A stretch of DNA of 59,443 nt from contig NZ_CAJXJX010000001.1 of assembly GCF_913055775.1 (NCBI RefSeq), forward strand, positions 1-59,443. Reading direction: 5' to 3'. The position numbers and the translations under genes were made by a program. The notes beneath the pieces were generated by a model. That model was not told where the DNA came from, did no database searches, and saw nothing but the letters and a program-made list of their open reading frames with translations. Of this stretch, positions 18,298 to 46,083 are shown piece by piece (positions within the stretch are counted from its first letter, which is position 1; each line of letters starts with the position of its first letter). The DNA is from an uncultured Demequina sp. Its GTDB lineage: Bacteria; Actinomycetota; Actinomycetes; Actinomycetales; Demequinaceae.

Positions 18298-18732
18298 TCA
18301 CTGAATGTCGAACTCGTCCTCCAACTTGAGGAGCTCCTCGAGGGCCTCGCGCTGCGCGCGCACTCGCTTGGCGCGCAGGTCAGCGACGTCGGCAGTCTTG
18401 ACTCGGGTGTGCGTGCCCACCTTGTGTGAGGCCAGTTCCCCGTCGCGGATCAGCTTCATCAGCGTGGTGCGGCTGACGCCCAACTGCTCGGCAGCCACCG
18501 TCGTCGTGAGCTCCGGCGGCACGGAACCAACCGTGACACTGTGACCATCCGCAACTTCGTGGAGCACGCGCGAGAGGAACTGGACAAAGCCAGCGGAGAG
18601 CTCGGGAGCAGTTTGCAGGTCGAGCGATGCGCCGTGCGCAGGCATCGATCGCTCGAGGAAGTCGACGAGTAGTTGCGCCTCAGCACGCTCGGCCTCGTCA
18701 GCGAACACAGTGGACGATGCGGTCCCAGTCAC
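18298..18732 (-). CDS. Excisionase-family (HTH_17/MerR-like) DNA-binding protein
   Basis: ELTTTVAAEQLGVSRTTLMKLIRDGELASHKVGTHTRV motif; GGGAGG RBS before GTG 18732. Confidence 0.85.
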   Translation of the reverse strand: MTGTASSTVFADEAERAEAQLLVDFLERSMPAHGASLDLQTAPELSAGFVQFLSRVLHEVADGHSVTVGSVPPELTTTVAAEQLGVSRTTLMKLIRDGELASHKVGTHTRVKTADVADLRAKRVRAQREALEELLKLEDEFDIQ

Positions 18733-18762
18733 GGCAGCCTCCCAAGCCACGGTCAAGATACA

Positions 18763-18784: not shown

Positions 18785-18814
18785 TATGCAACTGAGTGCC
18801 AGTTACAACTGACA

Positions 18815-23493: not shown

Positions 23494-24237
23494 TCAAAGA
23501 TCCGAGGAGACCTGGGAATACAGCGACCCGCGGGCTTCGCGCATTTGACGCTCGAGGCGCTCGGAGAAAGCCGAGTCATTGACCCTAACACCCAGCTCGA
23601 CGTTGGCGTTCTCGGCGCTCCAGGACATGTTTGCACTCGTGACCACTACGAACCGATGATCGACTGAGATGAACTTGGCGTGATTGCGCACGGCCCTGCC
23701 ATCGAAGGGCTTGGTCGCGTAGATCTTTCCAGGAGCAAGCGTCTCGGCGATCTGCCTCGCATTCGGCCCGTAGCCACTGCCGGCTGCTTCTGCGTCGACG
23801 TAGACAGTGACCAAGACTCCGTCGCGCGATGCGGCCGCCTGGAGTTCGTCCCACATCCCGGATGACTCCTGGAAATTGAACGTTGATGCCACGACGGAGT
23901 GCCGCGCGCTCCGAACGAGATCTACCAGCGAGCCTGTCAACGCACCTGACTGAGCCAGGTGCCCCGGCATGGTCCAGATCGCGTCCACCGAGGTCACCTG
24001 CGACTTGGCACCCTCGATCGCCCACAGAGCCGCGACAAGGACCTCCCGTCGAGCACGCAAGCCGTGCGTCACAGCCAGTGCAGATACCTCAGCCCGCTGC
24101 TCCGCTCCCAGGACACTCAGCGCTGACCCGAAACTCTCGTCCGCATCAAGTGACGACGCAACAAGGCGTGCCTCCGTCCCGCTCAGAGTCTCTCCGAGAC
24201 GGCGCATTGCGTCCCCGAGGTCAGGAGAAGAAGCCAT
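23494..24237 (-). CDS. drmC: DISARM phospholipase D-family nuclease DrmC
   Basis: Single HKD motif HAKFISVD...TSANMS...NVELG; last gene after drmB. Confidence 0.88.
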   Translation of the reverse strand: MASSPDLGDAMRRLGETLSGTEARLVASSLDADESFGSALSVLGAEQRAEVSALAVTHGLRARREVLVAALWAIEGAKSQVTSVDAIWTMPGHLAQSGALTGSLVDLVRSARHSVVASTFNFQESSGMWDELQAAASRDGVLVTVYVDAEAAGSGYGPNARQIAETLAPGKIYATKPFDGRAVRNHAKFISVDHRFVVVTSANMSWSAENANVELGVRVNDSAFSERLERQMREARGSLYSQVSSDL

Positions 24238-29948: not shown

Positions 29949-32900
29949 TCGACGTCACCTTCTTCCTCGTCGTCGTCTTCGACCAGTGCCGCGTCGCCTT
30001 GAGCGCCGGCACGTCGCAGATTCTCCTCCAACAGTCGATCGAGTACCTCGACGCGAGCGGCAGGGCTCACGGTCCAGCGTTCCATCTGACGGTAGGTGTG
30101 AAGACCGTGGTCGAGTGGAACGTCGTCCCAGCCGTAGGCCGCCATGACCGCCTCGTCGAGCTGGACGTGAATCTCTCGCATGCGCGCAACGTCAGCGTCA
30201 GCCGAGTCCACGACCGACGGGTCGTTCACGAGGTTGTAGAGCTTGGTGAGACCGAGATCGCGGCGCAGCATGATCTCGCGGCGCTCAGATTCCAACACAC
30301 GGCCAACCTCATCGAGCTCATCCGTCGACTCGGGCCGGGGGAAAGTCTCAAAGACGTCCGATGGCGTATAGCGCAGATCCTTGCGCATGGTGGTGCCGTA
30401 TTTTGATACCCACAACTGATGAAGGGAACTGCTGACTACCGCCTGGAACGCCCGAGACTCGGTCGCAAACACAATGAGCGCGTGGCTCGGAACGATTCCC
30501 GCGGATGCTCGCACGGGCATTAGGGTATTACTCGTCTGCGCAATCGCCACGTATTCGCTAAGACCTGCGATTGCCAAACGCATCTTTGCTCGACTTCGAA
30601 GAAACTGCCACCATGGCACTGATCCCGTCGATTTGGTCTTCTTTGCCCGATCAGGACGTACCATCCTGTCCAGCCGCATGAACGGCTCCTTGAAACACTC
30701 CGCTTCGCTCAATGTGCGGTCTCGCATGTCAATGACCCAACGCGACGGCGCACTGTCAGGTCGGGAGTTGAGATCGTCGCCGTTTAGGTAGGGCCGGACT
30801 ACTTCTCGGTTCTTTGGATCCGCCTTGATTAGCGCTTCCGCTTCGCTCGGGTCGAGCACAAAGCCGTCGCCAAAAACGATGCACCCCTGAAACGCGATGC
30901 CAGAATTCTCGCTCAGACGCGCGGGTCTCGCATCAATTCGCCCCGCGGCCTCGAGCAAGGATGAAATGCGTCGGACCTCCAGGCCGTCAGCGAATCTCGA
31001 CACCAGCTCCGAGACCGCGCCATCGCTCCCCCACAAAGCCGCGTACTCCAGGTTTGCACTCTTGGCAGGCCACGCGCGCGACTGGACACAACGTGCGATC
31101 GTGAAACCCGACGACACCAACTGATCGAGTCCGACTTCTCGCGTGTCCCCTTGCGCCACCGTATTTGTCGCAATAAGACCCAATGAGCCGTGAGGAGAGG
31201 CCAGCGAATGTGCACGTAGCAGGAAGTAGGCAACGAGGTCAGCGGATCCGCGAGTTCCGCCAGCGAGTACGTTTACGAACCAGTCGCGGACTCTGGCACC
31301 AACAGCAGCCGTCAGCTTCTGCCCGCCAAGAAATGGCGGATTGCCGATGACCGCGTCGAAGCCGCCGCGCTCCATGACGTCCGGCACGGCGAGCGGCCAA
31401 TGGAGAGGCTTCCAGCGCTCGTAGTCCGTCTCGACCTCGGGCGTGAGCCCCACGTCGACGATGGAGTCGAGCATCGTGGAGTCTCCTCCACCCGCGCCAT
31501 AAGCACGGTCGACAGCGATGCGAAGGCTCTCGTACGCCTCGTTCAGCTTCTTGCCTGGCTTGCCGCCGAGTGGAAGCCCTGCGGCGATGATCCCGTCCGC
31601 GACGTGCGCAAGTTGCGCGACGGTCTCCTGGTACTCGTCCCAGAGGCGCCGCTTCGTGCGCGATGAGCGTTGGGGATCCGCATCGTCCACCGCCGTCGCG
31701 AGGTTGCGCCGCAGGTCGACCGCACGACGAATCGTCGCATCCACGTCGAGCGACTCCACGTAGCCCGCTTCATCCCCTTCGGCCGCCCAGAGGAGGCCGG
31801 CGTGCTGGCTGCGCGACCGGGAAGCGACCGCATCGGGATCAATGTGCAGCGCCTCGAGCTGCTTCGTCGACGTGATGCCCAGGAGCGAGTTGCCATGCAA
31901 CACCTTGTCGTCCACGAAGGAGAACGGCAGGTCCGGGTCGAGCGAGACAAGCCACAGTGAGATCTTGCACATCTCGACTGCCATGCCGTTGATGTCAGCG
32001 CCGTACAGGCAGCGCGCGACCACCTGGCGGCGCGCTCTCACGCGGAGGTGCTCGGCCTGAGCGGATGCAACACCCTCATCCGTCCACGCCTCGATCACCT
32101 TGTCGGCGAGGTACTCCGCAGCCGAGACAAGAAACGCTCCAGAGCCGCAGGCGATGTCCGCGACCTTCAGATTGAGGATCTGATCCGAGGAGAGGAGGCG
32201 CCACTCGTCCCTGTTGGGCGTCTGATACGGCCCAGGCTGGTAGACCACGGGCTCGAGCGCGTGCAGCACTACTTCTCGCGCGAGGTCCTTGGGCGTGTAG
32301 TGCGCGCCTGACGTTGCTCGAGACGGCGTCTCGGCGACGATAAGGCCACCTACCGGAATGACCACCATGCGGTCACGGAGGTCGCGGCGGACAGCCCCAG
32401 CGAATGGTCGCAGACGGTCGCGCAGGACCAGGTCGCGCGTCACTGCCACGAGCGCCCTCTCGGCGTCGTCGTCAATGTCGGCTGCGAGTGCCTTTGCCAG
32501 AGCGGCTCCTGAGGGCGCCTTCGCCGCCGGCTGAGAAGCCTTGACCCATGCGAGCACGCTCTGGGAAAGCTTCTTGAGGTCGGGGCTCTCCGCGGCCAGG
32601 CCCTCCATCGTCTCAAGGGGGATCTCCGGTTCCTCACCTTCGCGTCCGAGCAGGCCCAGCGTCGTCTCATCGACCTCCCGCGCCGTATAGCCGAGCAGAC
32701 CCTCGTAGATGTAGCCGATCTGCTCGACATCCACGTCTCGGAACGAGACCGGACGCCGCTGACCGCCGATGGTGGCGTACTGCAGTGCCCGGAGCACTTC
32801 AAGCATGACGCGGTCGGAGACGGTCACGGCAAGGGCCCCGACCTCGTCGCGGGACTCGAGGAACTCAAACCTCGACGGGTCGAACAGGGACCCGCCGTAT

Positions 32901-34009
32901 GAGGGAAGCCGCATGTCTTCAGCACTGACGCCCTCGTATAGGGCACGCGAGGTCGCCAGAAGCCGGTGCCAGGTGTCGCTTGTCGCGTCGAGCGACTCGG
33001 CGTCTTCGTGGTTGAGGCGCCGTTCGAGGGCTCGCAACTGGCCGCCCATACCGTAACCATCGACGTAGAGCGCGGACTGCGGCATCATGGCGCGGTCCTC
33101 GGCGAAGAGCAGGAACACGACGCGCATCATCACCGTCACCGCCGCGTCATAGACGCGATGGCGATCCGCGGGCAGCGGATCCGGCTTGCCCGTCTCACGC
33201 GCTGACAGCAGTCCGTCCGAGAAGGCGCCCACCAGCAGTTCGACCGCCCGGCGCACCTGAGTGCCCAGGGCGACCGTGAGGTCCTCAGCTGCTGTCACCG
33301 AGTCCGCGAAAATGGCGGCCGTTCGCTCCTCGGGCTTGCCTCCTGCGAGTCGGATGGGGCTCAGGAGCGCGAGGAACCCGTCGCGCACGTCTGGCTCCTC
33401 GATCCACGTTTGGGCGTCGACGATTCCGGACGCCACCAGGGCATCCTCCGGCGCGCTGACAAGACCCCACCATCGGCCGTCCGTGACGACCCCGACGGGC
33501 ACCTTGTTCTCTCGCAACAGGTGTTCCATGCGATCGATGGGGCTCGCCGCCCAGCCATCGGTTCCTGGCTCGCGCAGGTTTGTGGCCGCGTCGACGGCTA
33601 GAACGAGCATGTGCGCCGAGCCTTCTCGCGAGAAGGCGAGCGTGGGAGCCACTGAGACGGAGCCGTCTGGAGACTCGATGGGCTTCAGGTGAGGCGAGGA
33701 TGCTGCGTCAACCAGATGGGTGCCCCACCCCGCTGTCGACTCGAGAACTACCCTGACCCACGCGTCCCGGGCGTCGCGGTACGAGACTGCCGCGCCCTCC
33801 GCTGAGGGGTCGCTCGTGTGCGCGTCCCACGTACGCTCAAACTGCGGCTTCGCGTCGCGAAGCGCGGCCTTGGCACCGTCGTCCATGGCCGGAACGCCTT
33901 GCGGCCACACCTTGCGCAATGCGGGGACGGACACGAAAGGTCCGTCGCGATCGACCAACTCGAGCCACTCGCGATAGCGCTGGGCAACCGGCTTCACAGG
34001 CGGCTTCAT
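29945..34009 (-). CDS. drmMI: DISARM class I adenine methyltransferase DrmMI (Eco57I-like)
   Basis: GAHYTP, DIACGSGAFL (SAM binding), GNPPF catalytic motif, C-terminal TRD; located between drmD and drmA with ATGA/GTGA overlaps. Confidence 0.88.
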   Translation of the reverse strand: MKPPVKPVAQRYREWLELVDRDGPFVSVPALRKVWPQGVPAMDDGAKAALRDAKPQFERTWDAHTSDPSAEGAAVSYRDARDAWVRVVLESTAGWGTHLVDAASSPHLKPIESPDGSVSVAPTLAFSREGSAHMLVLAVDAATNLREPGTDGWAASPIDRMEHLLRENKVPVGVVTDGRWWGLVSAPEDALVASGIVDAQTWIEEPDVRDGFLALLSPIRLAGGKPEERTAAIFADSVTAAEDLTVALGTQVRRAVELLVGAFSDGLLSARETGKPDPLPADRHRVYDAAVTVMMRVVFLLFAEDRAMMPQSALYVDGYGMGGQLRALERRLNHEDAESLDATSDTWHRLLATSRALYEGVSAEDMRLPSYGGSLFDPSRFEFLESRDEVGALAVTVSDRVMLEVLRALQYATIGGQRRPVSFRDVDVEQIGYIYEGLLGYTAREVDETTLGLLGREGEEPEIPLETMEGLAAESPDLKKLSQSVLAWVKASQPAAKAPSGAALAKALAADIDDDAERALVAVTRDLVLRDRLRPFAGAVRRDLRDRMVVIPVGGLIVAETPSRATSGAHYTPKDLAREVVLHALEPVVYQPGPYQTPNRDEWRLLSSDQILNLKVADIACGSGAFLVSAAEYLADKVIEAWTDEGVASAQAEHLRVRARRQVVARCLYGADINGMAVEMCKISLWLVSLDPDLPFSFVDDKVLHGNSLLGITSTKQLEALHIDPDAVASRSRSQHAGLLWAAEGDEAGYVESLDVDATIRRAVDLRRNLATAVDDADPQRSSRTKRRLWDEYQETVAQLAHVADGIIAAGLPLGGKPGKKLNEAYESLRIAVDRAYGAGGGDSTMLDSIVDVGLTPEVETDYERWKPLHWPLAVPDVMERGGFDAVIGNPPFLGGQKLTAAVGARVRDWFVNVLAGGTRGSADLVAYFLLRAHSLASPHGSLGLIATNTVAQGDTREVGLDQLVSSGFTIARCVQSRAWPAKSANLEYAALWGSDGAVSELVSRFADGLEVRRISSLLEAAGRIDARPARLSENSGIAFQGCIVFGDGFVLDPSEAEALIKADPKNREVVRPYLNGDDLNSRPDSAPSRWVIDMRDRTLSEAECFKEPFMRLDRMVRPDRAKKTKSTGSVPWWQFLRSRAKMRLAIAGLSEYVAIAQTSNTLMPVRASAGIVPSHALIVFATESRAFQAVVSSSLHQLWVSKYGTTMRKDLRYTPSDVFETFPRPESTDELDEVGRVLESERREIMLRRDLGLTKLYNLVNDPSVVDSADADVARMREIHVQLDEAVMAAYGWDDVPLDHGLHTYRQMERWTVSPAARVEVLDRLLEENLRRAGAQGDAALVEDDDEEEGDVE

Positions 34010-37000
34010 GACACCCTCCCTGCCGCCGCATCGGCCGGCGTCAGCGCGAACACGACGGCCGCCGCAGAGACGTACGGCTGCACATCCACGTACCGCGCCC
34101 GAAGCTCGGCGATCTCTCGCGCTTCCTCGTCGGCTAGTTCGTTGAGTCGCCGCTCAATCGACTCGATGTCCTTGCGGTACTGGCGCAACTGGTCGGGGTT
34201 CATCGAGAACAGGGCCTCGCGCTCCTCCTCGAGCGAGCGCCGCATCGTCGCCACGGACTCTTGCAAGTTGAGCCGGAATGCGCCATAGATTTGCTCCGCG
34301 CGCGCGATGTCCGCGGCCTCGCGCTTCTCAAGGTCGCTACTCACGCTCTCGCGCCGCGCATCGGCCCGGCGATGCATCGCGTTTTCCAAACGCGTCCGCA
34401 AACGCCCTCCCTCGGCAGTCCATAGCTGCGAGACGTGACTGCGAAGGTCTGCGTCGGCGAGCGTGAGATCCGGGTCGTCCAAGGTGCGTTCGAGCAGCGC
34501 CTCGACCTTCGCCTCCGCGAGCGCCTGACCTCGCAGACGTACGCCCGCGAGGAAGACCTCCTCATGAAGGCGGAGACCCCCGCGACCCACGAGTACGAGA
34601 CGGCTCGCGGCGGCGACGCAGGACTCCTCGAGATCGTCGACCACCACGGCCGTGACGCGGTTCATGGCGGCGTCGGCGCTGAAGAGCGATGCCCGCAGGG
34701 TTCGCGACGCCTTCCGCATGAGCGCATGACCCAGGTGCACCCGCACGATGGTCTCGTCGGGATCGTCCTCAGCGATGTCGTCTGCGAACGTGATGGGACG
34801 GAGCGTGTCCGGCTGCAGGCGCGTGGCGAGCCCTGACGTCGCGTTCTGCCAGCCGCGAGCCAACGGAGGGAGCTCGAATACCTCAGCGTCTGTCAGGTCA
34901 CTGCCGACCTCGCGAAGCGCAGGCTGCGCGGTCACGGCGAGGGCTGTGTCGACGACCCTCCTGCCGTTAGACGCAGTGAGGTGCATGCGCTCCTTCTGAG
35001 AGTCGAAGGTGCGAGCCAGTTGCGTGAGTTCTCGATTGAGCTGGGCGCTGCCCGCCATCGCGCGGTTGACGGCTTGGGTGTTCTTGTCCGCACCCGCCTT
35101 TTCCGTTGCTATCGCGATGCTGCCGAAGTGACCCTGAATGTCAGAGTCGATGACGGGGTTCACGGAACCGAGGTCACCCGCAATGGTGGACACCTTCTCG
35201 GCGACGCGCCGCATGAAGTCCATGTCTGCGGCATACGTCGCTGCGGTCGACTCGGGCAAGAACTGGAAGATCTGCGGAGTTTCGGTCTGTCCGTACCGGT
35301 CGATGCGGCCGATGCGCTGCTCGAGCCGCGACGGGTTGAACGGGACATCGAAGTTGACGAGACGATGGCAGTGATTCTGAAGGTCGATGCCCTCGCCTGC
35401 CGAGTCGGTGGCGACGAGCACGCGAATGGGATCCTGGGCGGGATTGGCGGTGAAACGCGCGCGCACGTCGGCGCGTTCCTCCGCATCCGTCGAGCCCTGG
35501 ATGACTCCCAGGCGAGACTCGTCGTATCCGCGCTGCCGGAGGTTGCTGACGATCCACTCGAGCGTGGAAGCGTACTCCGTGAAGATCACCACGCGCTCGT
35601 TGGACCAGTGAGGCTGGGCCGGGCGACAGATGGCGTCGAGCCACTCGATCAGGGCGCTCAGGCGGGAGTCCGGCTTGTGCTCGTACGACAGGCCCCATGC
35701 GCTGAGTGTCGCGATCTGCTCCGGCGTCGCCGCGACCAAGGGATTGTTGCCCTTCGACTTGCGGAGGGCATCGAACTCCGGGTGCTCGACGGCGCCCTCT
35801 TCCTCGTCGCTCTGGCTGCTCCCTAGGACTTCCAGGTAGTAGTCATCCTCCGGTTCCCACTCCGAGCTCCCTGTTGCGGCTTGGGCGTAGAGACTCAGCG
35901 TGGACGCGAACGCGTACGGACTCGACAGGAAACGCTTCTTGAGCAGCATCGACACGATGTCGCCGCCGCGCTTCGTGTCGTTGGCGCGTGCACTCTCGGT
36001 CAAGATGCTGTCGAGCGTTTCGAACGCCTCCGCCTCGTCATCAGAGGGGCTGAAGGTGATCGTCTTGACTTCGCGCTTGCGGAAGTTCTTCTCCGCGATG
36101 TCGCGCTTGAGTCGGCGCACGGTGACCTCGGCGAGAGCCTTCTCGTCGACGAGTGCGCCGCGGCTGAAGCGGCGGTCGTCGACCATCTCGAGGAGAGCGG
36201 TGAACGACTCGGTGTGCCCGTTGTGCGGCGTGGCGCTGAGGAACAGGCGATGCTCGCATTGCTTCGCTAGCGCGCGTACCGCTCTCGTGCGCTGGCTGTC
36301 CACTGCGTAGCCGCGAGCCTGGCCAACCCGCGACGGGCTCGAGGGCGCGGCATGGTGAGCCTCGTCGACTACGAGGATGTCGAACGCGTAACGCCGCGCT
36401 GAGTTTTCGATGCCGACGTCGCTCAGGACGTCGCGCACCAGGCGCTGGGCACGCAGGCCGGGGAGCCACGCCATGCTGATGATGACCCGGGGGAAGAGCT
36501 TGAGCGGGTTGGCCCCGAGCCCGTGGGTGCGGCGGACCTCTGCCATGAGCTCGCTGTTGACGATGACGAAGTCGAGACCGAACTTGTCCCGCATCTCCTC
36601 CTGCCACTTGGTGGCGAGGCTCGGAGGACACACGACCGCCACGGAGCGGGCCCGGTGACGGAGCAGGAGCTCCTGGATGACGAGACCGGCCTCGATGGTC
36701 TTTCCGAGGCCCACGTCATCTGCGAGCAGCAGGTTGGCGCGCGGTGCCTGAAGCGCCCTCCGCAGTGGCTCGAGTTGGTAGGCCTCGACGTTTGCGCCAG
36801 AACGGAAGGGAGCTTGGAAGGCCGAGGGGTTCGCGGTGGTGACCGCTCCCCACCGCACAGCGTCTACGTATGCCGCGAGCATGTTGGGGTCATCGAAGCC
36901 GTCTTCGGAGATCACCTCCGGCAGACCTTGATCCGGCGCGATCGAATGACCGACCTCGAGTTCCCAAACCACGTCGAGTTCCTCGCCCAGGCGGTCTTCC

Positions 37001-37158
37001 GCGAGGGACTGGAGCGACACCACGTGGTTGAGGCGCGGCCGACCGTCGTCTGCAGGGCTGCGTGGCAACGCCTGTTCTCGCACGTCGGAGACGGCCCAGA
37101 CCTCTCCGCGGACGTCAACGATCTGGCCGGGCTCTGGCGTGGTAGGTACGGCAGTCAA
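34006..37158 (-). CDS. drmD: DISARM SNF2-like helicase DrmD
   Basis: YQLEP, LLADDVGLGKT, DEAHH, LSATPHNG, EGIDLQ and RLEQRIGRIDR motifs; TTG start with AGGGAAG RBS and a TAGTCT -10 candidate at 37211-37216. Confidence 0.92.
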   Translation of the reverse strand: MTAVPTTPEPGQIVDVRGEVWAVSDVREQALPRSPADDGRPRLNHVVSLQSLAEDRLGEELDVVWELEVGHSIAPDQGLPEVISEDGFDDPNMLAAYVDAVRWGAVTTANPSAFQAPFRSGANVEAYQLEPLRRALQAPRANLLLADDVGLGKTIEAGLVIQELLLRHRARSVAVVCPPSLATKWQEEMRDKFGLDFVIVNSELMAEVRRTHGLGANPLKLFPRVIISMAWLPGLRAQRLVRDVLSDVGIENSARRYAFDILVVDEAHHAAPSSPSRVGQARGYAVDSQRTRAVRALAKQCEHRLFLSATPHNGHTESFTALLEMVDDRRFSRGALVDEKALAEVTVRRLKRDIAEKNFRKREVKTITFSPSDDEAEAFETLDSILTESARANDTKRGGDIVSMLLKKRFLSSPYAFASTLSLYAQAATGSSEWEPEDDYYLEVLGSSQSDEEEGAVEHPEFDALRKSKGNNPLVAATPEQIATLSAWGLSYEHKPDSRLSALIEWLDAICRPAQPHWSNERVVIFTEYASTLEWIVSNLRQRGYDESRLGVIQGSTDAEERADVRARFTANPAQDPIRVLVATDSAGEGIDLQNHCHRLVNFDVPFNPSRLEQRIGRIDRYGQTETPQIFQFLPESTAATYAADMDFMRRVAEKVSTIAGDLGSVNPVIDSDIQGHFGSIAIATEKAGADKNTQAVNRAMAGSAQLNRELTQLARTFDSQKERMHLTASNGRRVVDTALAVTAQPALREVGSDLTDAEVFELPPLARGWQNATSGLATRLQPDTLRPITFADDIAEDDPDETIVRVHLGHALMRKASRTLRASLFSADAAMNRVTAVVVDDLEESCVAAASRLVLVGRGGLRLHEEVFLAGVRLRGQALAEAKVEALLERTLDDPDLTLADADLRSHVSQLWTAEGGRLRTRLENAMHRRADARRESVSSDLEKREAADIARAEQIYGAFRLNLQESVATMRRSLEEEREALFSMNPDQLRQYRKDIESIERRLNELADEEAREIAELRARYVDVQPYVSAAAVVFALTPADAAAGRVS

Positions 37159-37262: not shown

Positions 37263-39062
37263 TCAGGCACCTTCGCTGTGCGCTTCGGCCTCGATCATGA
37301 CGCTGTCTGGCGGCACCATGCCTCGGGTTACCATCCACTCCATCAGACGCTGAACGCCGTCGACCTTCTTCTTCGCATCCTGCGTGAGCTTCTTGCCCTG
37401 CCCGGAAGAGTCGTTGAGCTCCTCGAAGGCAAGCAGCTCGTCGGTCGCTTCGATGAGTGCATTGCCGGCAGCTACCCACTCAAAGCCCGGTGCCGTGTCG
37501 ACTCCAATGCGTTCGGCGACGAGGCGTGCCGCGAGGAGGTCTCGGAGTCCCGCGAGAACCGCCTCCGACGATTGAGCGCCGAGCGTTCTCCCGAGCGTGA
37601 CCGCGGCGCCACTCCCTACGCCGGCGACGCCACCAACCACCATCAGGCCGCCTGCGATGCCTCCCGGCCCCAAGGCCGACAGCCCTGCAAGAAAGGCTGC
37701 TCCTCCGGCAAGACCTGCAGGTGCAGCCGCGACGGCAAGAAACGGTGCTGCCACCACCGCCACACCTGCCAGAACAACTGCCGTTGCCAGCGTCGCGACG
37801 CGCTTGACTGCCCGTCCCTGTTCCTCCCCAACTGTCTTGACCTCGTCGACCGCACTCTCGACGATGTCGACGTAATTCTCGAGAATGCCAAAATCCATCG
37901 CTACTTGGCGACGCACTCCGGGCGCGACTTTGGAGTAGTCCACGCTGAATGGCAGTAAGGGATCCACTCGATAAAGGTGGACCAAGAACATCGGGATCTG
38001 TTCCGGAGCAACCCTGCCGTGCAGCCAAGGCTTCATGTCTCGGTCGAGGTCATTGAAGATCGGCCGCGACCCAGAATCCTCTGCGGCCTTCAGCGCCTGC
38101 GAGGCCAACCACTCGCGTATACCACGGACACGTTCCCGCTTGTCTTTAGCGCCTCGCTGAGGCGAAGTCTGCAGAGCCATCTCAATGCGGTAGGAGTGCT
38201 GCATCGTGACAGCGGTCAGGAGGTCGCTGCCCGACCACTCGTCCCGATCGGGACCTTCCCTAGACGGCACGACCCCGCGCTCTCGGACACCATAGAGGGC
38301 GTTGCCGATCTCCCTGCAAATCTGCGGCTGCTGCAGCGCATGCGCAACGCCGTGGTCCCTGAATCGCCCATTGAGCGCAAGATTGACAGCCTCCGGGATC
38401 GGGCCGCCAATCCCGCCCGCGTTCGGCACGAAGTCCAACGAGTTGTACACGTTGACCCACGCTTCCACCGCCGCAAGGTTCGCGTGCTTGTACGACTTCT
38501 CTGCGAACTTTCTGAAGGTTTGGCGCCCGAGCGGCGAGCCGAGAGTCAGGAGCAGCTTGATATTCATGCGCTCCGGAAGTTGACCGAGCAATTCCAACGC
38601 GACCGCGGTCCCAAGAGAGTGCGCGATAACGACCCAGTCACCTTCAGCGTTTCCGAGGCCGTGGAGTACACGCCTGATGATAGTTGGATGGCTGTCGGCG
38701 GCGAGGAACGCACGTACCTGGGCAAACATCGGGAAGGCCGCCACGCTCACCTTCTCCAGCGTCGCATCGTCCAGCGGCCCTCGGCCGGGAGCAAACCTCG
38801 CACCTGCGATGCGATGCGCCACCACGCTTTGCCGCGCAGCGAAGTCAGATCTGGCTACACGATCAGTGGCCTCGAGCGGCAATGTCCCTTCATCGCCGGC
38901 GCCGGTCGAGAGCAGATCGTCGTAGTGCGGTTCCACGGCATCCGTCAACTCAACGGGCGAACGCTGGCAGTCCGCCAGCGCCTCATTCAATGGCGTGCGC
39001 CAGTCCACTACCTCAGCACTATTGATTCCGTGCAGGAAAAGCACCCTCACTTGCTCTGCCAT
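37263..39062 (-). CDS. Uncharacterised alpha/beta-hydrolase (lipase-like) with a C-terminal Gly/Ala-rich hydrophobic hairpin
   Basis: FLHGI oxyanion motif, AHSLG nucleophile, candidate Asp (LDFVP) and His (DHG); long hydrophobic stretch AVVLAGVAVVAAPFL...GLSALGPGGIAGGLMVVGG. Confidence 0.75.
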   Translation of the reverse strand: MAEQVRVLFLHGINSAEVVDWRTPLNEALADCQRSPVELTDAVEPHYDDLLSTGAGDEGTLPLEATDRVARSDFAARQSVVAHRIAGARFAPGRGPLDDATLEKVSVAAFPMFAQVRAFLAADSHPTIIRRVLHGLGNAEGDWVVIAHSLGTAVALELLGQLPERMNIKLLLTLGSPLGRQTFRKFAEKSYKHANLAAVEAWVNVYNSLDFVPNAGGIGGPIPEAVNLALNGRFRDHGVAHALQQPQICREIGNALYGVRERGVVPSREGPDRDEWSGSDLLTAVTMQHSYRIEMALQTSPQRGAKDKRERVRGIREWLASQALKAAEDSGSRPIFNDLDRDMKPWLHGRVAPEQIPMFLVHLYRVDPLLPFSVDYSKVAPGVRRQVAMDFGILENYVDIVESAVDEVKTVGEEQGRAVKRVATLATAVVLAGVAVVAAPFLAVAAAPAGLAGGAAFLAGLSALGPGGIAGGLMVVGGVAGVGSGAAVTLGRTLGAQSSEAVLAGLRDLLAARLVAERIGVDTAPGFEWVAAGNALIEATDELLAFEELNDSSGQGKKLTQDAKKKVDGVQRLMEWMVTRGMVPPDSVMIEAEAHSEGA

Positions 39063-39067
39063 GGAGG

Positions 39068-42000
39068 CTAGCCTACAGATGGCGGCATTCGCCGGGAGCG
39101 CACGACGTCGAACCGCAGGGCGCGCGTCTTCGGCGCTGACAGGTCAACTCGCATCCACTCCGCCGACTCGCCGACCGCCCTTAGGAGATCGTCCTGCCGG
39201 GGTTGGCCAAGCAACTGACGGTAAGTGACGACCGTCCGAAGCAAGCGGTTGTAGTGCTGGAGCTCTCGACTCAGCGGCTGGGCAGGCACATAGCGCTCGA
39301 TAGCGGCGCCGTCGGAGCTCGGGTAGACCCAGAACGGCACGACCTCGGACTCGGCATCGGCCCGGCGTGCCACCGCGGACGAGAACGCGGCCTCCCAGGG
39401 GTCGTGGTAGCGGGCATTGAGAGCCGCCGCCCGATGATCATGCGCCACGTTCTTCCGCACTGCGTGACCCTTGTATCGATGGACCCGCCCCTCGCGCTGC
39501 TCAAGATCGACCGGGTTGCCGGGCAAGTTCCAGTGGACAATCGCGTGGCTATAAGTGTGAAAGTCCAAACCCTCCTGGCCCACGGACGTCGACGCAAGCA
39601 CAAACGGCCTGAATGGCGAGTTATAGGCGACGCGCACGGCACCTTCGCGCACCACTGCCTTGTCATCGGACTGCGCGCGGCCATAGCGCGCGGCGAAGTG
39701 ACTGCCGACGCGATGTGGCGTGAGCTCGATGCGCCCCGATTCGACCGAGACGTCTTCGACCACGTTGGTCGCGGTGCGTGTCGAGAGCGCCTCGCCGATC
39801 ACGGCAGATAGCCGGTCGGCGCGCGCGCCCGGAGCGGCATCCTGGAGCCCCTCCGACTCGAGCAGGACGTGGACATACTCATCGAGCACTGCCTGCAAGC
39901 CGCCGTCGATGCCGTGGTGCAAGACGCCGCGCCAGTACGCCTCGCCGTCGTGCGACCGCAGCAGCGCGATGATCTCCGGCTTGTTGAACATCGACCGCAG
40001 GCCCAGTGCGATCTCCACTGCGCCGCCTCGAAGTGCAGCGTCGCCGAGTGCATCAGCGCCGCCTGCAATGCGCGAGAGTGCGCGCAAGCCGACGACTCCA
40101 GGACCTGCGATAGCGACGTCAGTGAGCACCCCGGCGAGGTCGTGCGGAACGGCGCCCAGGCCGAGCGCGACCGCGCCGGACGGCTCTTCGACAGAGTCCA
40201 GACGTGCCAGAAGTTCGAGGTGCTCTCTCAGCCGGCTGGTGCCATCGCCCTCGTCGATCGCTCGCGCCCGGATCAAGCGCGAGAGCTCACGCGCGCTCAC
40301 GCCCTCGACGTGCCGGTCGAGCATCGCCGCCACAACCCAGTACCACCGCGAGTCCGTCGCGCCCCCGACGTCCGGAAGCGGCGGCAAGCGACCGAGCAGA
40401 GTCTCGATCCGCTCTCGAACAATCCCGATCATGTGTTCGCGATCCATCGGCATCGCGCCAACCTCTCGTGCGATGGCGAGCGGATCGGCGACGCGTGCAA
40501 GCGCGGTCGACGGGTAGAGCAGAGTCATGGTCGTGCCCGCAGGCCGGTACTGGAGCGGCGCGGTGGTGGCGCGCTGCTCGTCGTACGTCCGCCCGGCGAG
40601 CCCGGCGTGCTCGAGCGTCAGCCGCTCGGCCTCGTAGCTCGTCATCACTGCGATGGCCTTGGGAACCACAGCCCATGCCGAGAAGATCAGCCGCTTGGTG
40701 AAGCGACGCAGCTGCTCGTCCGCGTAGTCAGCTCCGAGCTCGTAGTAGGGCATCGACGGCGGGAGCCATGCGAGCTTCCATGCTCCGCGGTCGAGCACGT
40801 CGGCGAACAGCCCTCGGAGCTTGGCATTGCCTGGGTCGATTCGCGCGTACGACGCGATGTCGACTCGGCTGAGCATCCCGGACGCTTTCTCGAGGAGTCG
40901 TGCCAGCGACGGGTCACCGGTCTCGACAGCCGCCTCGAAGCGCTTGCGGATCTGGTAGGTCCCCCGCTCCATCAGGTTCAGCGGGTACGGACTTGAACGC
41001 CAGTACTCGAAGACATCGTGGCGGTCGAGATGCCTGGCAGCTGCGTCGAAGGTCACCCATGACCGTAGGTCCGCGCGATCGATCACCGCTCCGGGCATCG
41101 GCGCCTCGCGCAGCATCCCGTCACGGTCGGGTGTCGAGGCCAACCTCTCCATGCGGCTCATCACACGCCGCAGCGTCTGCTCGACGCGATCGCGGGCGCA
41201 GAGCGCCTCAGCGGTCGGCCCACCAGCCACTGCCGCTTCCCTCATCACGCGCAGATCGTCGCGGACACCCCGTGCCGCGTCCTCACCCGCGAGGAAGCCG
41301 ACGGTGCGTTGGAAGTCGTCGTAGTGGTCATCGCCACTCGGCTCGTCGGGAAGTGTGTACATCTTGAATGGAGTCGCGGACAAGAGCAGCACACGCGCCT
41401 TCTCGTGATCGAACACCTCTCGCGCGAGGTCCGATCCGTAGCCTTCGCCGTCGAGCACGTCCTTGAACCGCTGGAACTCATCGAGGATCACGAGGTCGGG
41501 CTCGAGGTGCTCGACCGCAGCGCGGGCGACCACGTGGCGTAGCCGGCCAACAAGGAGGTTGCGTTCGTTGCGGAGGGTCGAATTGGGTTGGCCGCGGGTC
41601 TTGCGAAACCTATCGACGCACGCCTCGAGTTCGTCAACGAGAGGTCGGCCCCGCGGCCCGATCGCGTGCTCAACGGCTCGACCGAAAGAGGAGACCAACT
41701 CATGGTCGAGGGTGCCGCGATCGAAGTCTCGGAGGTATTTCAGGAAGTTCTCCTCTCCCACTCGCCCCTGAAAGAAACGCCTCCAGGGGCGAGTCGCAAG
41801 CTTGCGCCTTCCCCAGTGCGCAGCAAGCATCCAGTAGAGAAGGACCCGCTCTGGGTACGCGCCGTCAGACGCGCCGTCGCTGAACGAGGTGCCAGGCGTG
41901 AACGAGATGAAGTTGACCTTCTCTGCGCGCAGGTCTTGCAGCGCCTTGGGTAGGAGCGTGAGCCGGTCAGCGTGCCGCAGCTCGGCGCCTCCGACGACAT

Positions 42001-42280
42001 TGAGACGGCTGAGGTTCTGTCGCGCGATCTGGGTGTTCGAGCAGATGTAGACGATGTCGATGCGGTCTTCCTTGTCCCACAAGTACTCGACAGCCTTGGC
42101 GATGACGCCCTTCGCAATCATGGTCTTGCCGAGCCCGACCTCGTCGGCCACGAGGAACCGCTTGGTCCAGTCCTCATCCGCCCATAGCCGCTGGAACGCG
42201 TAGTCGACCGTGCGACGCTGGAAGTCCTTGAGGCTGCCGAGAATTCTCTCGGTGTCTGGACGCTCTCGGGACGCACTCAT
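39068..42280 (-). CDS. SF2 helicase (third gene of the DUF6361-PLD-helicase module)
   Basis: LKDFQ, FLVADEVGLGKT, LDEFQRF, LSATP, GQEGLDFH and EQREGRVHRY motifs; ATG overlaps the PLD stop. Confidence 0.88.
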   Translation of the reverse strand: MSASRERPDTERILGSLKDFQRRTVDYAFQRLWADEDWTKRFLVADEVGLGKTMIAKGVIAKAVEYLWDKEDRIDIVYICSNTQIARQNLSRLNVVGGAELRHADRLTLLPKALQDLRAEKVNFISFTPGTSFSDGASDGAYPERVLLYWMLAAHWGRRKLATRPWRRFFQGRVGEENFLKYLRDFDRGTLDHELVSSFGRAVEHAIGPRGRPLVDELEACVDRFRKTRGQPNSTLRNERNLLVGRLRHVVARAAVEHLEPDLVILDEFQRFKDVLDGEGYGSDLAREVFDHEKARVLLLSATPFKMYTLPDEPSGDDHYDDFQRTVGFLAGEDAARGVRDDLRVMREAAVAGGPTAEALCARDRVEQTLRRVMSRMERLASTPDRDGMLREAPMPGAVIDRADLRSWVTFDAAARHLDRHDVFEYWRSSPYPLNLMERGTYQIRKRFEAAVETGDPSLARLLEKASGMLSRVDIASYARIDPGNAKLRGLFADVLDRGAWKLAWLPPSMPYYELGADYADEQLRRFTKRLIFSAWAVVPKAIAVMTSYEAERLTLEHAGLAGRTYDEQRATTAPLQYRPAGTTMTLLYPSTALARVADPLAIAREVGAMPMDREHMIGIVRERIETLLGRLPPLPDVGGATDSRWYWVVAAMLDRHVEGVSARELSRLIRARAIDEGDGTSRLREHLELLARLDSVEEPSGAVALGLGAVPHDLAGVLTDVAIAGPGVVGLRALSRIAGGADALGDAALRGGAVEIALGLRSMFNKPEIIALLRSHDGEAYWRGVLHHGIDGGLQAVLDEYVHVLLESEGLQDAAPGARADRLSAVIGEALSTRTATNVVEDVSVESGRIELTPHRVGSHFAARYGRAQSDDKAVVREGAVRVAYNSPFRPFVLASTSVGQEGLDFHTYSHAIVHWNLPGNPVDLEQREGRVHRYKGHAVRKNVAHDHRAAALNARYHDPWEAAFSSAVARRADAESEVVPFWVYPSSDGAAIERYVPAQPLSRELQHYNRLLRTVVTYRQLLGQPRQDDLLRAVGESAEWMRVDLSAPKTRALRFDVVRSRRMPPSVG

Positions 42281-44103
42281 GAGCGCTTCTCCGTGTGGAC
42301 GGACCACACGACGTTCCAGAGGTCCTCGAATCCCTCTGGCATCAGTTCGGCACCGCCGCGCGCCTGCCTGAGCTCGTCCATCGCCCCGGCGATGCGCGCA
42401 AGCGCCGCGTCGTCGCGCCCGACCGCGTGCACGAGCGGTTCGAACAGCGCCACGTCTTCGTTGGTACCGCGGTACCCGCCTTCCCAGGCCACCGCATCGG
42501 CGCCAGCAAGCTCCGCGAGCAGCGCGTCGTACGCGGGGTCACCGAGCAAGAAGATCAGGTATCGCAGCACGTCACGCTGAGACTTGAGCACCGAAGCGAA
42601 AGCGTTCTTGCGACGGTCGCCGACGTCGCCGGTGAGCTCCGCCTTCACCACGCACCGACGGCTCACCTTCGCGTCGCCAATGCCCGCCGTCGTCTCCAGG
42701 GCGACGAACGGCGTGACGTTATCCGTCGCCAGGGTCCAATCCATCACCTCAGCGAGCTCGCGAGCATGGCCGTCACGTGCGATGGAGATCGGCCATGCGA
42801 CGGTGCTGCCCGGCGGCTCGGGCGGCACCACCAGCGCGACAGCCACCTGCGCGCGATCGTCGTCGATCGTCGCGACGTGAGCAGAGACGCCTGCCTCCGC
42901 GATGGCGCGATGGAATGCCTCGATCTCATACGTGGTCGCGATCTGGGCGTCGTCGATCCCGTCCGCTTCGGCAGCCGATGCGGGCTCGAGCATACGTATG
43001 AGACCCGGCGCCTCTTCGGTCCCATCGAGTACTTGCTTGACGCCACATTCGCGCGTCGCGCCGCGCAGTACGACGTCGAACTCGACGTTCCCTCCCCAAC
43101 GCGCGCTCGTGAGGTTGGCACTGCCAGTGACGACCTCGGACGTGCCTCCGTCGAGATCCACGATGAAGGTCTTGGCATGAAGTCCTTCGTTGGCGCCGCC
43201 GAACTCGAAGCCGACGGCTTCGGCCTCGCCAACCTCCGCGCCGGCCTCTACCTCTGCCAAGCGCTGCAGGACGTTCGTGTCCCAGCCGGCGAGCGCATCG
43301 GCGCCAAGAAGGTCGAGCGACTCTTGCCGGGTGATCAGCGTCCGCGAGCTCGCAAGAGTGCCGAGCGAGCGAACCCCAGCGCGCGACAGGAACGGGCTGA
43401 TTGCGAGGACTCGTCGAGCACGGTCCGGGAAGGGCCACACTTCGGCGCCGTCAATGCCGATCGGCAGCAGCTCGCCCGAGGTGAAAGGCGCCGGCACGAC
43501 GAGCCGAGTCTCCCGGAGCGTGCTCGCGAGGCTGGCGATCTGCTGAGCGCGGTCCGTCGCAAGCGGGCGCAAGCCGAGACCGGGCAGGGCCTCAACGAAA
43601 CCGGCCATCGGCGCGGCGTCGATGGTCCCGCCCGGGGCCTCGTCGAGCACGAGCGCCGTATCCCACGACCGATCGAAGGTGATGTTCCGGCTCAGCACGA
43701 CGACCCGGTGAAGGAACGAGGACCGTGACTCGTCCGCGAATCGAAGCACCCAGACCTTGGGATGGAAGATCGCGCCGTCTCGTGGCGCCACCACCTCGCG
43801 GACGCTTTCCTCCACGAACAGCAAGATGCTGCGGTAGTTCGGCGGGACATGGATGCCGCCCGCCTGGCAGAACACTGTGGTCCGGTCCGCGTAGCGGCGT
43901 ACAGCCTCCAGCAATCGCACAGGGTCCGCTGCGTCCAGGTCCGAGCCGGCGATACGGTCCTCAAGCGCAAACGAGAGCGGCGCCAGAAGCATTGCGGTGA
44001 GGTCCATCGAGTACGTGGTGCCGACCGCGACGTCCACGCCCATGCCAGCGGGCGGGCGCAGCGCATCTGTGAGGAGCACGCGCGTCTCAGGGGTGAGTGT
44101 CAT
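42277..44103 (-). CDS. Phospholipase D-family nuclease-like protein with two HxK motifs
   Basis: FHPKVWVL...SRNIT and LHAKTFIVD...GSANLT...NVE; ATG 44103 overlaps the upstream stop. Confidence 0.85.
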   Translation of the reverse strand: MTLTPETRVLLTDALRPPAGMGVDVAVGTTYSMDLTAMLLAPLSFALEDRIAGSDLDAADPVRLLEAVRRYADRTTVFCQAGGIHVPPNYRSILLFVEESVREVVAPRDGAIFHPKVWVLRFADESRSSFLHRVVVLSRNITFDRSWDTALVLDEAPGGTIDAAPMAGFVEALPGLGLRPLATDRAQQIASLASTLRETRLVVPAPFTSGELLPIGIDGAEVWPFPDRARRVLAISPFLSRAGVRSLGTLASSRTLITRQESLDLLGADALAGWDTNVLQRLAEVEAGAEVGEAEAVGFEFGGANEGLHAKTFIVDLDGGTSEVVTGSANLTSARWGGNVEFDVVLRGATRECGVKQVLDGTEEAPGLIRMLEPASAAEADGIDDAQIATTYEIEAFHRAIAEAGVSAHVATIDDDRAQVAVALVVPPEPPGSTVAWPISIARDGHARELAEVMDWTLATDNVTPFVALETTAGIGDAKVSRRCVVKAELTGDVGDRRKNAFASVLKSQRDVLRYLIFLLGDPAYDALLAELAGADAVAWEGGYRGTNEDVALFEPLVHAVGRDDAALARIAGAMDELRQARGGAELMPEGFEDLWNVVWSVHTEKRS

Positions 44104-45302
44104 GCGGCGCCCCTCGCCTGGTAGAGGTCGCGCAGATGCGCTGAAGTGTTGGCCCAGCGGAAGTCGAGATGACCAAGGCCGCTCGATCCTGACCAGCGAT
44201 CGAGCGCCGACTGGTTCACGAACCGGGCACGGCTGCCCTTGATCTGGCGCTCGCGGGTCTCGGCGAGCCGCGCCGCGTCGCTGCTCGTCAGGAGATCGCC
44301 TCGGGAGCTCGCGATGTCCACCCAAGAATCCACGAAGGCCCGCGTCGTGTGGCGAAGCTGAGGGTTGTGAGTTCCGATGAGACGCCACCATGCAGCCCGG
44401 TCCCACGTCGCGGCGAGCTCGCGTGCGCCGGAGTCCTGCCACTCGGCGAGCGAATGCTCGTGGCCGACGAGCACATCCTCTCGTGCGCCTTTGCGCGCCA
44501 GCGCCACGTTGTAGACGAGTGCGGCGCCGTGAACAAGGACGCTGAAGCGCTGGGCGTGGTCGACGAGGTCGCGCAGATCCTGTGGGAGCTGATCCGTATT
44601 GCCAATTTCCCACGGGTAGCCCGCGGAATCCGGACCGTCCATGTTGGGCGGTGGGTTGCGCGTAAGCCACGCGAGAAGCGTTCCGCGTGTTCGCGAGGAG
44701 ATCCGGTACGAGAGGTACTCCTCCTCGCGGGCAGTCAGTTCGAAGGTCACCTGGCCCAGAAGTCCATCGGGTGGCGGAGGAAGCTCGGCGTCGATGCCGT
44801 CGCCGGGCAGCGTCATGTGCGAGTCGATGTCGTCGGCGTCGGCGGTCCTATCCCTCAGGGACCTGAAGTCCGACAGGCGACGGTAGTAGGCGTTCGGGGA
44901 AGATGCGTCCACCAAGCCCCAGTTGCCGAGCGCCGACCAGTAGACGTCACTAGGTAGCCTCTTGAGTGAACGCCGCGCGACGTTGCCCATGACGCCTTCG
45001 GTCTCACCACCCGCGAGCAGGCTGTCGATGAGGCGGTACTGCAGGTGCCGGAACTCCGCAGACATCTCCGCAGGCGTGTGCTTGCGCGACGCGGCTTGCA
45101 TGAGCCACGGCAGGAACAGGACATACCGAAGTCGTGTGTGCAGGGTGGACGTGCCGGGGAACATGGCATTCGCGAGGGTGTCGCGGATCGCGCCGATGCC
45201 CAGCTCGTCAATGGTCCCCTGCTCCCGGAAGAGGTCGACGACCTCCAGCATGCGGCGGCGCTGCTCGTCGTCATTGTCGAGCCATCCGAATGCCGAAGCC
45301 AT
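44100..45302 (-). CDS. DUF6361 family protein
   Basis: MASAFGWLD, DELGIGAIRD...FPGTSTLHTRLRY and PS.VYW..L..WG motifs. Confidence 0.8.
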   Translation of the reverse strand: MASAFGWLDNDDEQRRRMLEVVDLFREQGTIDELGIGAIRDTLANAMFPGTSTLHTRLRYVLFLPWLMQAASRKHTPAEMSAEFRHLQYRLIDSLLAGGETEGVMGNVARRSLKRLPSDVYWSALGNWGLVDASSPNAYYRRLSDFRSLRDRTADADDIDSHMTLPGDGIDAELPPPPDGLLGQVTFELTAREEEYLSYRISSRTRGTLLAWLTRNPPPNMDGPDSAGYPWEIGNTDQLPQDLRDLVDHAQRFSVLVHGAALVYNVALARKGAREDVLVGHEHSLAEWQDSGARELAATWDRAAWWRLIGTHNPQLRHTTRAFVDSWVDIASSRGDLLTSSDAARLAETRERQIKGSRARFVNQSALDRWSGSSGLGHLDFRWANTSAHLRDLYQARGAA

Positions 45303-45308
45303 GATGTG

Positions 45309-45384
45309 ATCCTGGCGCAATGGTGCGACATTTCCAACAGGTCGACGTGCCACGGTTGGCAATGTCACAGGGCTCTGCCAGGCT
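45309..45384. promoter_or_regulatory. Back-to-back PafBC/RecA-NDp-like promoters for the defence operon (-) and DUF429 (+)
   Basis: Minus: TGTCGC-ACCATTGCGC-CAGGAT-N6-ATG (45330..45309). Plus: TGTCAC-AGGGCTCTGC-CAGGCT-N6-ATG (45363..45384). The two arms form a 13/15 inverted repeat (45324-45338 / 45355-45369). Confidence 0.7.
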
Positions 45385-45390
45385 CACGCC

Positions 45391-46083
45391 ATGACAGTGT
45401 TGGGCTTGGACGGATGCAAGGGCGGATGGGCCGCCGTCGCCATTGACGACGAGGGTCTTGTTGGCTCGTTCGTGGCCGCGAGCATTGCCGATGTGGAAGC
45501 CGAGGCGAATGCGCGCTGGAACGTCGCGACGATTGTGGTCGATATCCCCATCGGACTGCCGGATAGAGGCCCTCGACAAGCCGACATCGAGGCTCGTAAG
45601 TTCATCGGGCCCCGCCGCAACAGCGTCTTCCCCACCCCTGTGCGCAACGCGGTCGAGTCGTCTACGTACCTCGAGGCATCAGCAGCATCAATCGCTGCGT
45701 CTGGCAAGAGCCTCAGCAAGCAGGCTTGGGCAATCACGCCGAAGATTCGCGAGGTGGATGCTCACATCAAGTCGGGTGACGCCTCCGCTCGCATTCTCGA
45801 AGGACACCCGGAAGTGTCATTCCGCGCAATGGCAGGAGAGTCGATCGACCACTACAAGAAGTCGCTGTCTGGTCTCCTCCTGAGGCGAGAGTTGCTTGCA
45901 AGCGAAGGAGTAGCGTTTCCTGAGGGCATCGAGCGCGAACTCAAGGGCTGCGACCTCGACGACCTCCACGATGCCGCCGCGATGGCATGGACGGCGCGGC
46001 GGGTTGAGCGTGGAGAGGTAGACAGCAAGCCGAACGCTCCCGAAGTCTTCTCCGATGGGCTGCCCAGTGCGATCTGGTACTAG
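45391..46083 (+). CDS. DUF429 family predicted RNase H-like nuclease
   Basis: VLGLDGCKGGW, VDIPIGL, R.AD..AR, EGHPEVSF and DDLHDA motifs. Confidence 0.85.
   Translation: MTVLGLDGCKGGWAAVAIDDEGLVGSFVAASIADVEAEANARWNVATIVVDIPIGLPDRGPRQADIEARKFIGPRRNSVFPTPVRNAVESSTYLEASAASIAASGKSLSKQAWAITPKIREVDAHIKSGDASARILEGHPEVSFRAMAGESIDHYKKSLSGLLLRRELLASEGVAFPEGIERELKGCDLDDLHDAAAMAWTARRVERGEVDSKPNAPEVFSDGLPSAIWY

Follow-up and report, generated by a model that had tools for sequence, protein, structure and literature searches.

A position-conserved PafBC-type promoter suggests likely DNA-damage control of one lineage of the Azaca anti-phage operon

In mycobacteria, single-stranded DNA (ssDNA) binds to the WYL domains of PafBC, the helix-turn-helix (HTH) of PafB reads a GTC at position -26, and the HTH of PafC holds domain 4 of SigA (accessible sections of PMC8635444 and PMC11804915); the T of this GTC is held by E42 and A43 of M. 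smegmatis PafB. The corresponding promoters of M. smegmatis and M. tuberculosis, also termed RecA-NDp, follow the pattern tGTCgg(N10)tA(N3)T (PMC8635444, PMC8151990, PMC11804915), and the published mycobacterial tables, in their accessible parts, also hold TGTCAC and TGTCGC variants and -10 hexamers of CA type. PafBC occurs in almost all actinobacteria and has so far been regarded as a regulator of repair; according to a 2025 publication, repair genes are all that SOS, PprI-DdrO and PafBC control (PMC12392091). In addition, pafBC has been linked to (mycobacterio)phage resistance (Rafique 2025, as cited in the accessible part of PMC12848934). Among the M. tuberculosis PafBC candidates, Rv2024c, Rv0059/Rv0060 and the 13E12-repeat genes are listed as hypothetical proteins (PMC8151990 Table S7), of which Rv2024c is mamB, a type IIG methyltransferase (PMC4737169), and the accessible part of the same table shows no induction of Mrr, type I restriction-modification (RM) or cas genes (PMC8151990).

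Two further kinds of WYL-domain regulators act on immune systems. DdaA of Moraxellaceae, a chromosomal damage activator that replaces SOS, has its motif in anti-phage promoters and was found by mutants and phage assays to drive RM (27% of systems) and CRISPR (90%), as described in the accessible text of PMC12392091. CapW and BrxR are repressors encoded beside the systems that they control, in which ssDNA sensing couples damage to an immune operon (accessible text of PMC11662680). As for Azaca, ZacABC homologs form a three-protein nuclease preferring modified T4 DNA (bioRxiv 10.1101/2025.07.10.664194); no description of its transcriptional control was found in the literature searched.

Here we analysed a stretch of 59,443 nucleotides from an uncultured Demequina sp. 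(the window), which contains a defence island around an Azaca operon. An earlier note on this DNA had proposed that twin leaderless promoters between zacA and a divergent DUF429 gene, together with similar sites before two further genes, wire the whole array to PafBC. The genes concerned are as follows.

7535..9253, minus strand: DUF222-HNH gene, outside the island
18298..18756, minus strand: HTH_17 gene
20347..23454, plus strand: UG5 reverse transcriptase-nitrilase (DRT family; PADLOC RT_UG5-nitrilase, 767 bits)
23494..37158, minus strand: class I DISARM (drmD, drmMI, drmA, drmB, drmC; PADLOC, NCBIfam)
37263..39062, minus strand: 599-aa ORF directly 3' of zacC, likely co-transcribed, syntenic in G455
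39068..42280, minus strand: zacC, SF2 helicase (PADLOC ZacC, 1105.7 bits)
42277..44103, minus strand: zacB, PLD-family nuclease, its start overlapping the zacA stop (PADLOC ZacB, 549.8 bits)
44100..45302, minus strand: zacA (DUF6361), first Azaca gene (PADLOC ZacA, 416.6 bits; Pfam PF19888)
45391..46083, plus strand: DUF429 gene, divergent from zacA, encoding a predicted RNase H-like nuclease (Pfam PF04250)

The three zac genes form one operon with overlapping junctions, which encodes the DUF6361, PLD and SF2 helicase proteins characteristic of Azaca. The nuclease motifs of ZacB are intact (HxK at 114 and 309, GSAN at 327), with the Asp of HKD lying away from its canonical place, and so are the Walker motifs of ZacC (GLGKT at 49, DEFQ at 267). 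DrmD, DrmA, DrmB and DrmC score above the NCBIfam cut-offs and DrmMI was recognised by PADLOC, in agreement with a class I DISARM. The ZacA profile match begins at residue 1, and residue 5 of the DUF429 protein aligns to profile position 1, so that ATG 45302 and ATG 45391 are likely the true starts. The GC content of the island is 61-67%, compared to 70% for the genome. The closest relative of ZacA shares 89% identity and comes from Demequina, as do several more of the top matches, and the whole island recurs in identical order in G455, a genome of the same genus as the window; at L151:11336-14376, near the N-terminus, the alignment of the G455 UG5 reverse transcriptase is split over two reading frames, owing to a frameshift or an assembly error. 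Near its Azaca, a third genome, G420, has DarTG together with type I RM-like genes (L153:1472-6565), and this site lies next to the hydrogenase Fe-S gene that also flanks the island of the window, which we read as a defence hotspot. Rv0059/Rv0060 of M. tuberculosis are presumably darTG as well.

The 599-aa ORF has no match in Pfam, PADLOC or NCBIfam and is 87% identical to its syntenic G455 counterpart. It contains a GxSxG-like AHSLG motif, and its Atlas feature neighbours are named alpha/beta hydrolase, mostly from Actinomycetota; we take an alpha/beta-hydrolase-like N-terminus as a lead only. Lying between Azaca and DISARM, the ORF is possibly an unrecognised defence gene. DUF429, a predicted RNase H-like nuclease family (accessible text of PMC3985635), lies divergently beside zacA in 12 loci, and the protein of the window has no sequence match in the PDB.

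The sites at issue are listed below.

9260..9281, minus strand: DUF222-HNH site, TGTCAG-N10-TGTGAT-N6-ATG (9253), common to all eight paralogs in the genome
18763..18784, minus strand: HTH_17 site, TGTCAG-N10-CATACT-N6-TTG, within ATGTCAGT direct repeats
45309..45330, minus strand: PafBC-type promoter of zacA, TGTCGC (45330-45325), N10, weak -10 CAGGAT (45314-45309), 6 nt to ATG (predicted leaderless start 45302)
45327..45366, unstranded: 12-bp inverted repeat, arms 45327-45338 and 45355-45366, one mismatch, 16-nt gap
45363..45384, plus strand: PafBC-type promoter of the DUF429 gene, TGTCAC (45363-45368), N10, -10 CAGGCT (45379-45384), 6 nt to ATG (45391)

All four motifs lie at the positions and with the geometry that the earlier note had given them, and the divergent spacer is 88 bp long. 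The zacA site has GTC at -26 in a hexamer 10 nt before the -10, and both CAGGAT and CAGGCT fit the -10 form tANNNT, whose first position, here C, is weakly conserved. One side of the spacer satisfies the motif rule in 0.16% of 200,000 mononucleotide shuffles and both sides in none, under a rule that was defined after the site had been seen. The twin promoters are both present; however, the two halves of the spacer are inverted copies with 25 of 36 positions identical, so the arrangement counts as evidence only once, and the likely origin of the DUF429 promoter is a duplication of the zacA promoter in inverted orientation. The claim that neither gene has a ribosome-binding site needs a qualification, as an AGGA lies within CAGGAT, 7 nt before the zacA ATG. 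We rejected CAGGAT as a Shine-Dalgarno sequence, because homologs retain its A and T and not the AGGA.

PafBC itself is encoded in the genome of the window (G000, 97% complete). A WYL search found two genes, both on contig C134 before tatA-tatC, which are pafB and pafC in tandem in the order hisG-pafB-pafC-tatA-tatC (neighbours named by eye). Both products have WYL and WCX domains and the second also HTH_PafC (Pfam); Pfam and the PDB named both proteins, for which NCBIfam gave no name. Alignment to the solved PafB chains, numbered against PMC8635444 and PMC11804915, showed that PafB keeps the equivalents of R46, R50, K52 and R56, in addition to those of the ssDNA-binding R208, R211 and R214, plus Y196. 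The genome therefore encodes a cognate PafB/PafC pair in which the GTC-reading arginines are retained, with differences at the equivalents of E42 and A43: the recognition helix of the C134 PafB (residues ~55-60) has Ala/Ser at these positions and is preceded by a 10-residue insertion. As the earlier note had stated, the island encodes no local regulator, in that it contains no WYL gene.

A genome-wide scan indicated that the motif marks the DNA-repair regulon of G000. TGTC-N12-TANNNT has 41 matches, whereas the 14 alternative spacings give 6-19 each; relative to the called starts (2467, from the gene calling done for G000 in this analysis), the motif is most frequent at -28/-29. Of these starts, 325 have TANNNT at -12/-13, indicating that leaderless starts are common. 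Among intergenic leaderless sites, 36 occur at spacer 12 and 6-17 at other spacings, with ~11.5 of the 36 expected by chance. In a sample of 20 regions chosen by eye from the match list (23 proteins scanned), such sites precede Pfam-confirmed uvrD, recA, uvrB, polA, dnaX, dnaN, SRAP and AlkZ-like genes, as well as genes for RadA-like, RecQ-like helicase, gyrase-B-like, exonuclease-GIY-YIG, PD-(D/E)XK nuclease and RNase T-type exonuclease proteins; unrelated genes, e.g. an aminotransferase gene, also lie behind them. SOS-like boxes, searched with a pattern that we presume to be valid here, stand before recA and elsewhere in the genome. A position weight matrix (PWM) built from 14 sites, which serves for ranking only since its training set was selected by motif, gave scores of 11.4 for zacA (28th of 2467 called starts), 13.2 for DUF429, 13.8 for HTH_17 and 10.5 for DUF222; the leave-one-out range is 6.5-19.1, with zacA in its lower part. 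The looser forms of the motif are less informative. In G000, a CA-type -10 goes with no excess of GTC (4 of 78 at spacer 12, 0-4 at the remaining spacers), and GCC as a tolerated variant shows none either (29 versus 18-33), for which reason GCC sites were not counted as support. The loose TGTC-N12-[CT]ANNNT gave 361 matches genome-wide versus 280-331 at other in-frame spacings, an absence of enrichment due to coding periodicity, so this pattern was left out as evidence. From G000 alone, the case is moderate.

Several other sites in this genome are of interest in their own right. At 1824-1845 of the window (minus strand), TGTCGG-N10-TACTTT-N7-ATG precedes an unrelated membrane-protein gene that is truncated by the start of the contig; this site, unmentioned in the earlier note, is nearer to the published consensus than any of its four. 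Directly upstream of dinB lies a gene for a PD-(D/E)XK_5 endonuclease (L004:1445-2155, minus strand; G000 C3:6644-7354), itself preceded by a strong leaderless PafBC site. Moreover, G000 has divergent PafBC-type sites ~21 bp apart at C9:13542/13563 and C10:24300/24322, in each case with one site before a repair gene and the other before an unrelated gene (a small ORF and an aminotransferase gene, respectively).

The main evidence for a PafBC-type promoter is a position-exact footprint before zacA homologs. The loci came from genome searches (6 of 401, 6 of 78 and 14 of 201 genomes), one named genome and 69 metagenome loci; of these 97 loci, 90 included the start plus 45 nt or more of upstream sequence, and dereplication left 62 representatives, 25 of which are leaderless-type, defined by a NANNNT hexamer 6-7 nt before the start. 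GTC stands at spacer 12 in 15 of these 25 promoters (14 of 24 without the window's own locus), while the other spacers from 8 to 16 give 0-1 of 25 and the G000 background 30 of 524; the Fisher p of 8e-12 is overstated, the loci being related. Raw counts over the 41 leaderless-type loci are 26 GTC, 4 GCC and 11 other, the four GCC loci being folded under a GTC representative. The hexamer positions of the 15 that played no part in the selection converge on TGTCGG (T in 10, G in 12 and G in 13 of 15), and their mean pairwise identity is 0.63, as against 0.35 for the spacer and 0.28 for the upstream region. The first base of the -10 is C in 14 of the 15. This CA-type -10 is compatible with PafBC because the start of M. 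tuberculosis Rv1482c, which RNA-seq data make a PafBC candidate, is preceded at 7 nt by TGTCGG-N10-CACACT (accessible part of PMC8151990); L052 and L080 zacA have CACACT as well, the same -10 as in Rv1482c. Three of the 15 come from genomes of two families and 12 from metagenome contigs without known taxonomy, and PafC HTH was found in all five genomes tested, four of which carry the motif.

The footprint is confined to one lineage. GTC occurs in 15 of 32 representatives with at least 44% identity to the window's ZacA and in none of 30 below, fragments inflating these identities. None of 12 held-out distant zacA loci at 30-43% identity carries the site, with PafC found in all five tested hosts of held-out GTC-less loci, and the site is absent from eight non-actinobacterial zacA loci (8 of 48 plasmid records examined). 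Leadered zacA genes gave no signal, with GTC-N12-TA in 3 of 37 versus 0-3 at other spacings. In a quick ZacA tree of 51 rows, which left out 11 representatives shorter than 300 aa (five of them with GTC), the 10 GTC rows are scattered within a 23-row group (SH-aLRT 83) and require 7 changes versus 9.4 when shuffled. This pattern would correspond to one gain and several losses, and one ancestral gain may explain all occurrences. Altogether, a PafBC-type promoter on one Azaca lineage is likely real, position-conserved and subject to the predicted control.

We thus favour, with a probability of roughly two in three, a mechanism in which PafBC loaded with ssDNA would bind GTC at -26 and recruit SigA RNA polymerase to the weak -10, giving a leaderless zacABC transcript. 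The ssDNA that loads PafBC would arise from damage, prophage induction or phage replication; transcription, which at PafBC promoters begins 6-7 nt after the -10, would start at the A of the ATG and cover the Azaca operon and the 599-aa ORF. The weak CA-type -10 would hold the nuclease low until damage or phage replication yields ssDNA, the TTGG -35-like hexamer, present in the two closest loci only, may add a basal level, and the DUF429 promoter would probably be co-induced. It is plausible that a nuclease lacking a self-mark would be inducible while the methyltransferase-based DISARM next to it is expressed separately. As the signature precedes the operon and is kept by relatives of one lineage, DNA damage likely switches on Azaca in this actinobacterium, a prediction drawn from sequence.

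The best-surviving alternative, which we consider unlikely, is that both promoters are ordinary SigA promoters with PafBC-free expression, and that GTC is a lineage relic or a minor modifier. The inverted repeat, in a feature absent from the earlier note, sets TTGGAA or TTGGCA exactly 17 nt before each -10 as a possible SigA -35, and this TTGG(A/C)A is also kept at 17 nt in L023. Moreover, four of the five other same-genus zacA promoters do without GTC while keeping the leaderless -10, which, if they work, agrees with such expression, as does the lack of enrichment of CA-type GTC sites in G000. However, lack of a -35 consensus is a trait of PafBC promoters, and a TTG -35 is missing from 13 of the 15 zacA promoters that carry GTC; only the window and its closest relative, two of the 15, have such a -35 or an SD-like 4-mer. 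In G000, only one of 30 GTC leaderless promoters has a TTG -35. In addition, a relic should decay like the spacer, whereas the hexamer is clearly better conserved than the spacer in the 15 promoters.

Still less probable is the island-wide form of the proposal, in which PafBC would induce the entire array on one transcript from zacA through DISARM, plus other nuclease or mobile-type genes. All genes from zacA to drmC lie on one strand with overlapping or abutting junctions save one 104-bp gap, no terminator-like site was found in 36900-37500, and the gene order is kept in G455. By contrast, the 104-bp gap before drmD has its own candidate TA-type -10, TAGTCT at ~37216-37211, without GTC at -26, and the gap in G455 likewise has a TA-type -10 without GTC (both by eye); other long loci have Azaca without a following DISARM. 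DISARM as a general PafBC target was rejected, since no convincing site precedes 15 actinobacterial drmD genes (15 of 17 over-cut-off matches, with the N-terminus in the locus), and no PafBC-type site was found upstream of the UG5 reverse transcriptase, which lies on the opposite strand. The claim that the whole array is wired to PafBC is therefore not supported for DISARM, the reverse transcriptase and HTH_17, none of which has a conserved site. DISARM and the UG5 reverse transcriptase are probably not direct PafBC targets, with read-through into DISARM conceivable.

That the 12-bp inverted repeat is the operator of a dimeric regulator of both divergent genes, with the TGTC match a by-product, is very improbable: its near-perfect arms around a 16-nt gap are retained in L023 while the middle has diverged, but the similarity spans the full 36-nt halves including the -10, as an inverted copy predicts, the arm pattern occurs in these two places alone in the genome, other zacA loci keep GTC and not the arms, and the island encodes no regulator.

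Beyond zacA, the other three sites fared differently. The motif at DUF429 is present as claimed, but only patchily kept: it is retained in the closest relative of the window and, with another spacer, in L031, and absent from L080 and L118, which share the 88-bp layout. We rejected the idea that DUF429 genes in general are PafBC targets, as only two of the order's 30 top-ranking DUF429 loci, the window's own among them, have the site. The DUF222 site has a -10, TGTGAT, that lacks the invariant A of tANNNT (-10 part of the PWM score, -0.4). All eight DUF222-HNH paralogs (G000 C1, C2, C12, C16, C20, C48, C58 and C89) have TGTCA[GC]-N10 followed by a -10 with TG or TT instead of TA (TGTGAT, TGAGAT, TGGGAT, TTGACT), an unusual variant of the PafBC-type promoter. 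Because the 13E12-repeat genes, which we take to be DUF222-HNH genes, are among the M. tuberculosis PafBC candidates, this link is expected rather than new. What the earlier note called an excisionase-like gene encodes an HTH_17 protein, most homologs of which are encoded ahead of PIN-type genes; the gene sits among hydrogenase genes outside the island, contrary to the claim that all four sites precede nuclease, defence or mobile-type genes. HTH_17 as a mobile-element target was rejected, the site being kept in none of 14 other loci, and it probably stands outside the system. The ATGTCAGT direct repeats upstream (18760-18820) may be an operator of this orphan HTH_17 gene itself.

Relatives' Azaca loci also have strong leaderless PafBC-type sites before neighbouring genes, namely a 208-aa protein of unknown function in the G455 island (L151:9128-9754, minus strand), an endo/exonuclease/phosphatase (L154:8560-9609, minus strand) and an ADP-ribosylglycohydrolase (L155:16679-17821, plus strand). 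Across eight long loci chosen for zacA, there are eight sites at spacer 12 versus 0-2 at other spacings. We tentatively extend the preferred PafBC mechanism to a mobile Azaca lineage whose portable PafBC promoter with its weak -10 might plug into the ssDNA alarm of any actinobacterial host; PafBC might then be an immune as well as a repair regulator, with the defence-island nucleases and hydrolases of L151, L154 and L155 in the same inducible arm.

The conserved PafBC cis-element of a defence operon that has a name offers a concrete and cheaply testable route from ssDNA sensing to immunity, and a first handle on Azaca regulation. It also carries a warning that such systems may look inactive if cloned without their promoter or outside Actinobacteria. 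The earlier note had held the regulatory link to be undescribed. In a search outside subscription papers, no publication came up that puts a PafBC site ahead of Azaca or of any other actinobacterial defence operon with a name. In general the link is less unprecedented than that, as DdaA drives RM and CRISPR (PMC12392091) and mamB and others are already PafBC candidates (PMC8151990). Indeed mamB, Rv0059/Rv0060 and the 13E12 genes put defence- or HNH-type genes into the PafBC table, the accessible part of which does not interpret them as immunity.

Compared to published Azaca (bioRxiv 10.1101/2025.07.10.664194), the window shares the order of DUF6361, PLD nuclease and SF2 helicase genes and the catalytic motifs, anti-phage activity being known for other homologs, and differs in having the 599-aa ORF after zacC. 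CapW and BrxR resemble the proposal in coupling damage to an immune operon through ssDNA sensing by a WYL protein (accessible text of PMC11662680), but they are local repressors encoded beside their systems, whereas the island has no WYL gene and the predicted control is activation by a core regulator of the host. The proposal for Azaca works like DdaA (accessible text of PMC12392091), and yet the window does not fall within a DdaA regulon: the regulator is a PafB/PafC pair, SOS-like boxes coexist with it, and the target is Azaca. With the mycobacterial PafBC promoters (accessible sections of PMC8635444, PMC8151990 and PMC11804915), the zacA site shares GTC, N10 and a SigA -10, often 6-7 nt from the start. 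It differs in that the zacA -10 is almost always of the weak CA form, that the window adds a -35-like hexamer, and that the target, known here from sequence, is an accessory anti-phage nuclease-helicase operon rather than a repair gene. The likely control by PafBC is narrower than the island-wide claim, concerning one Azaca lineage with a close precedent in another phylum.
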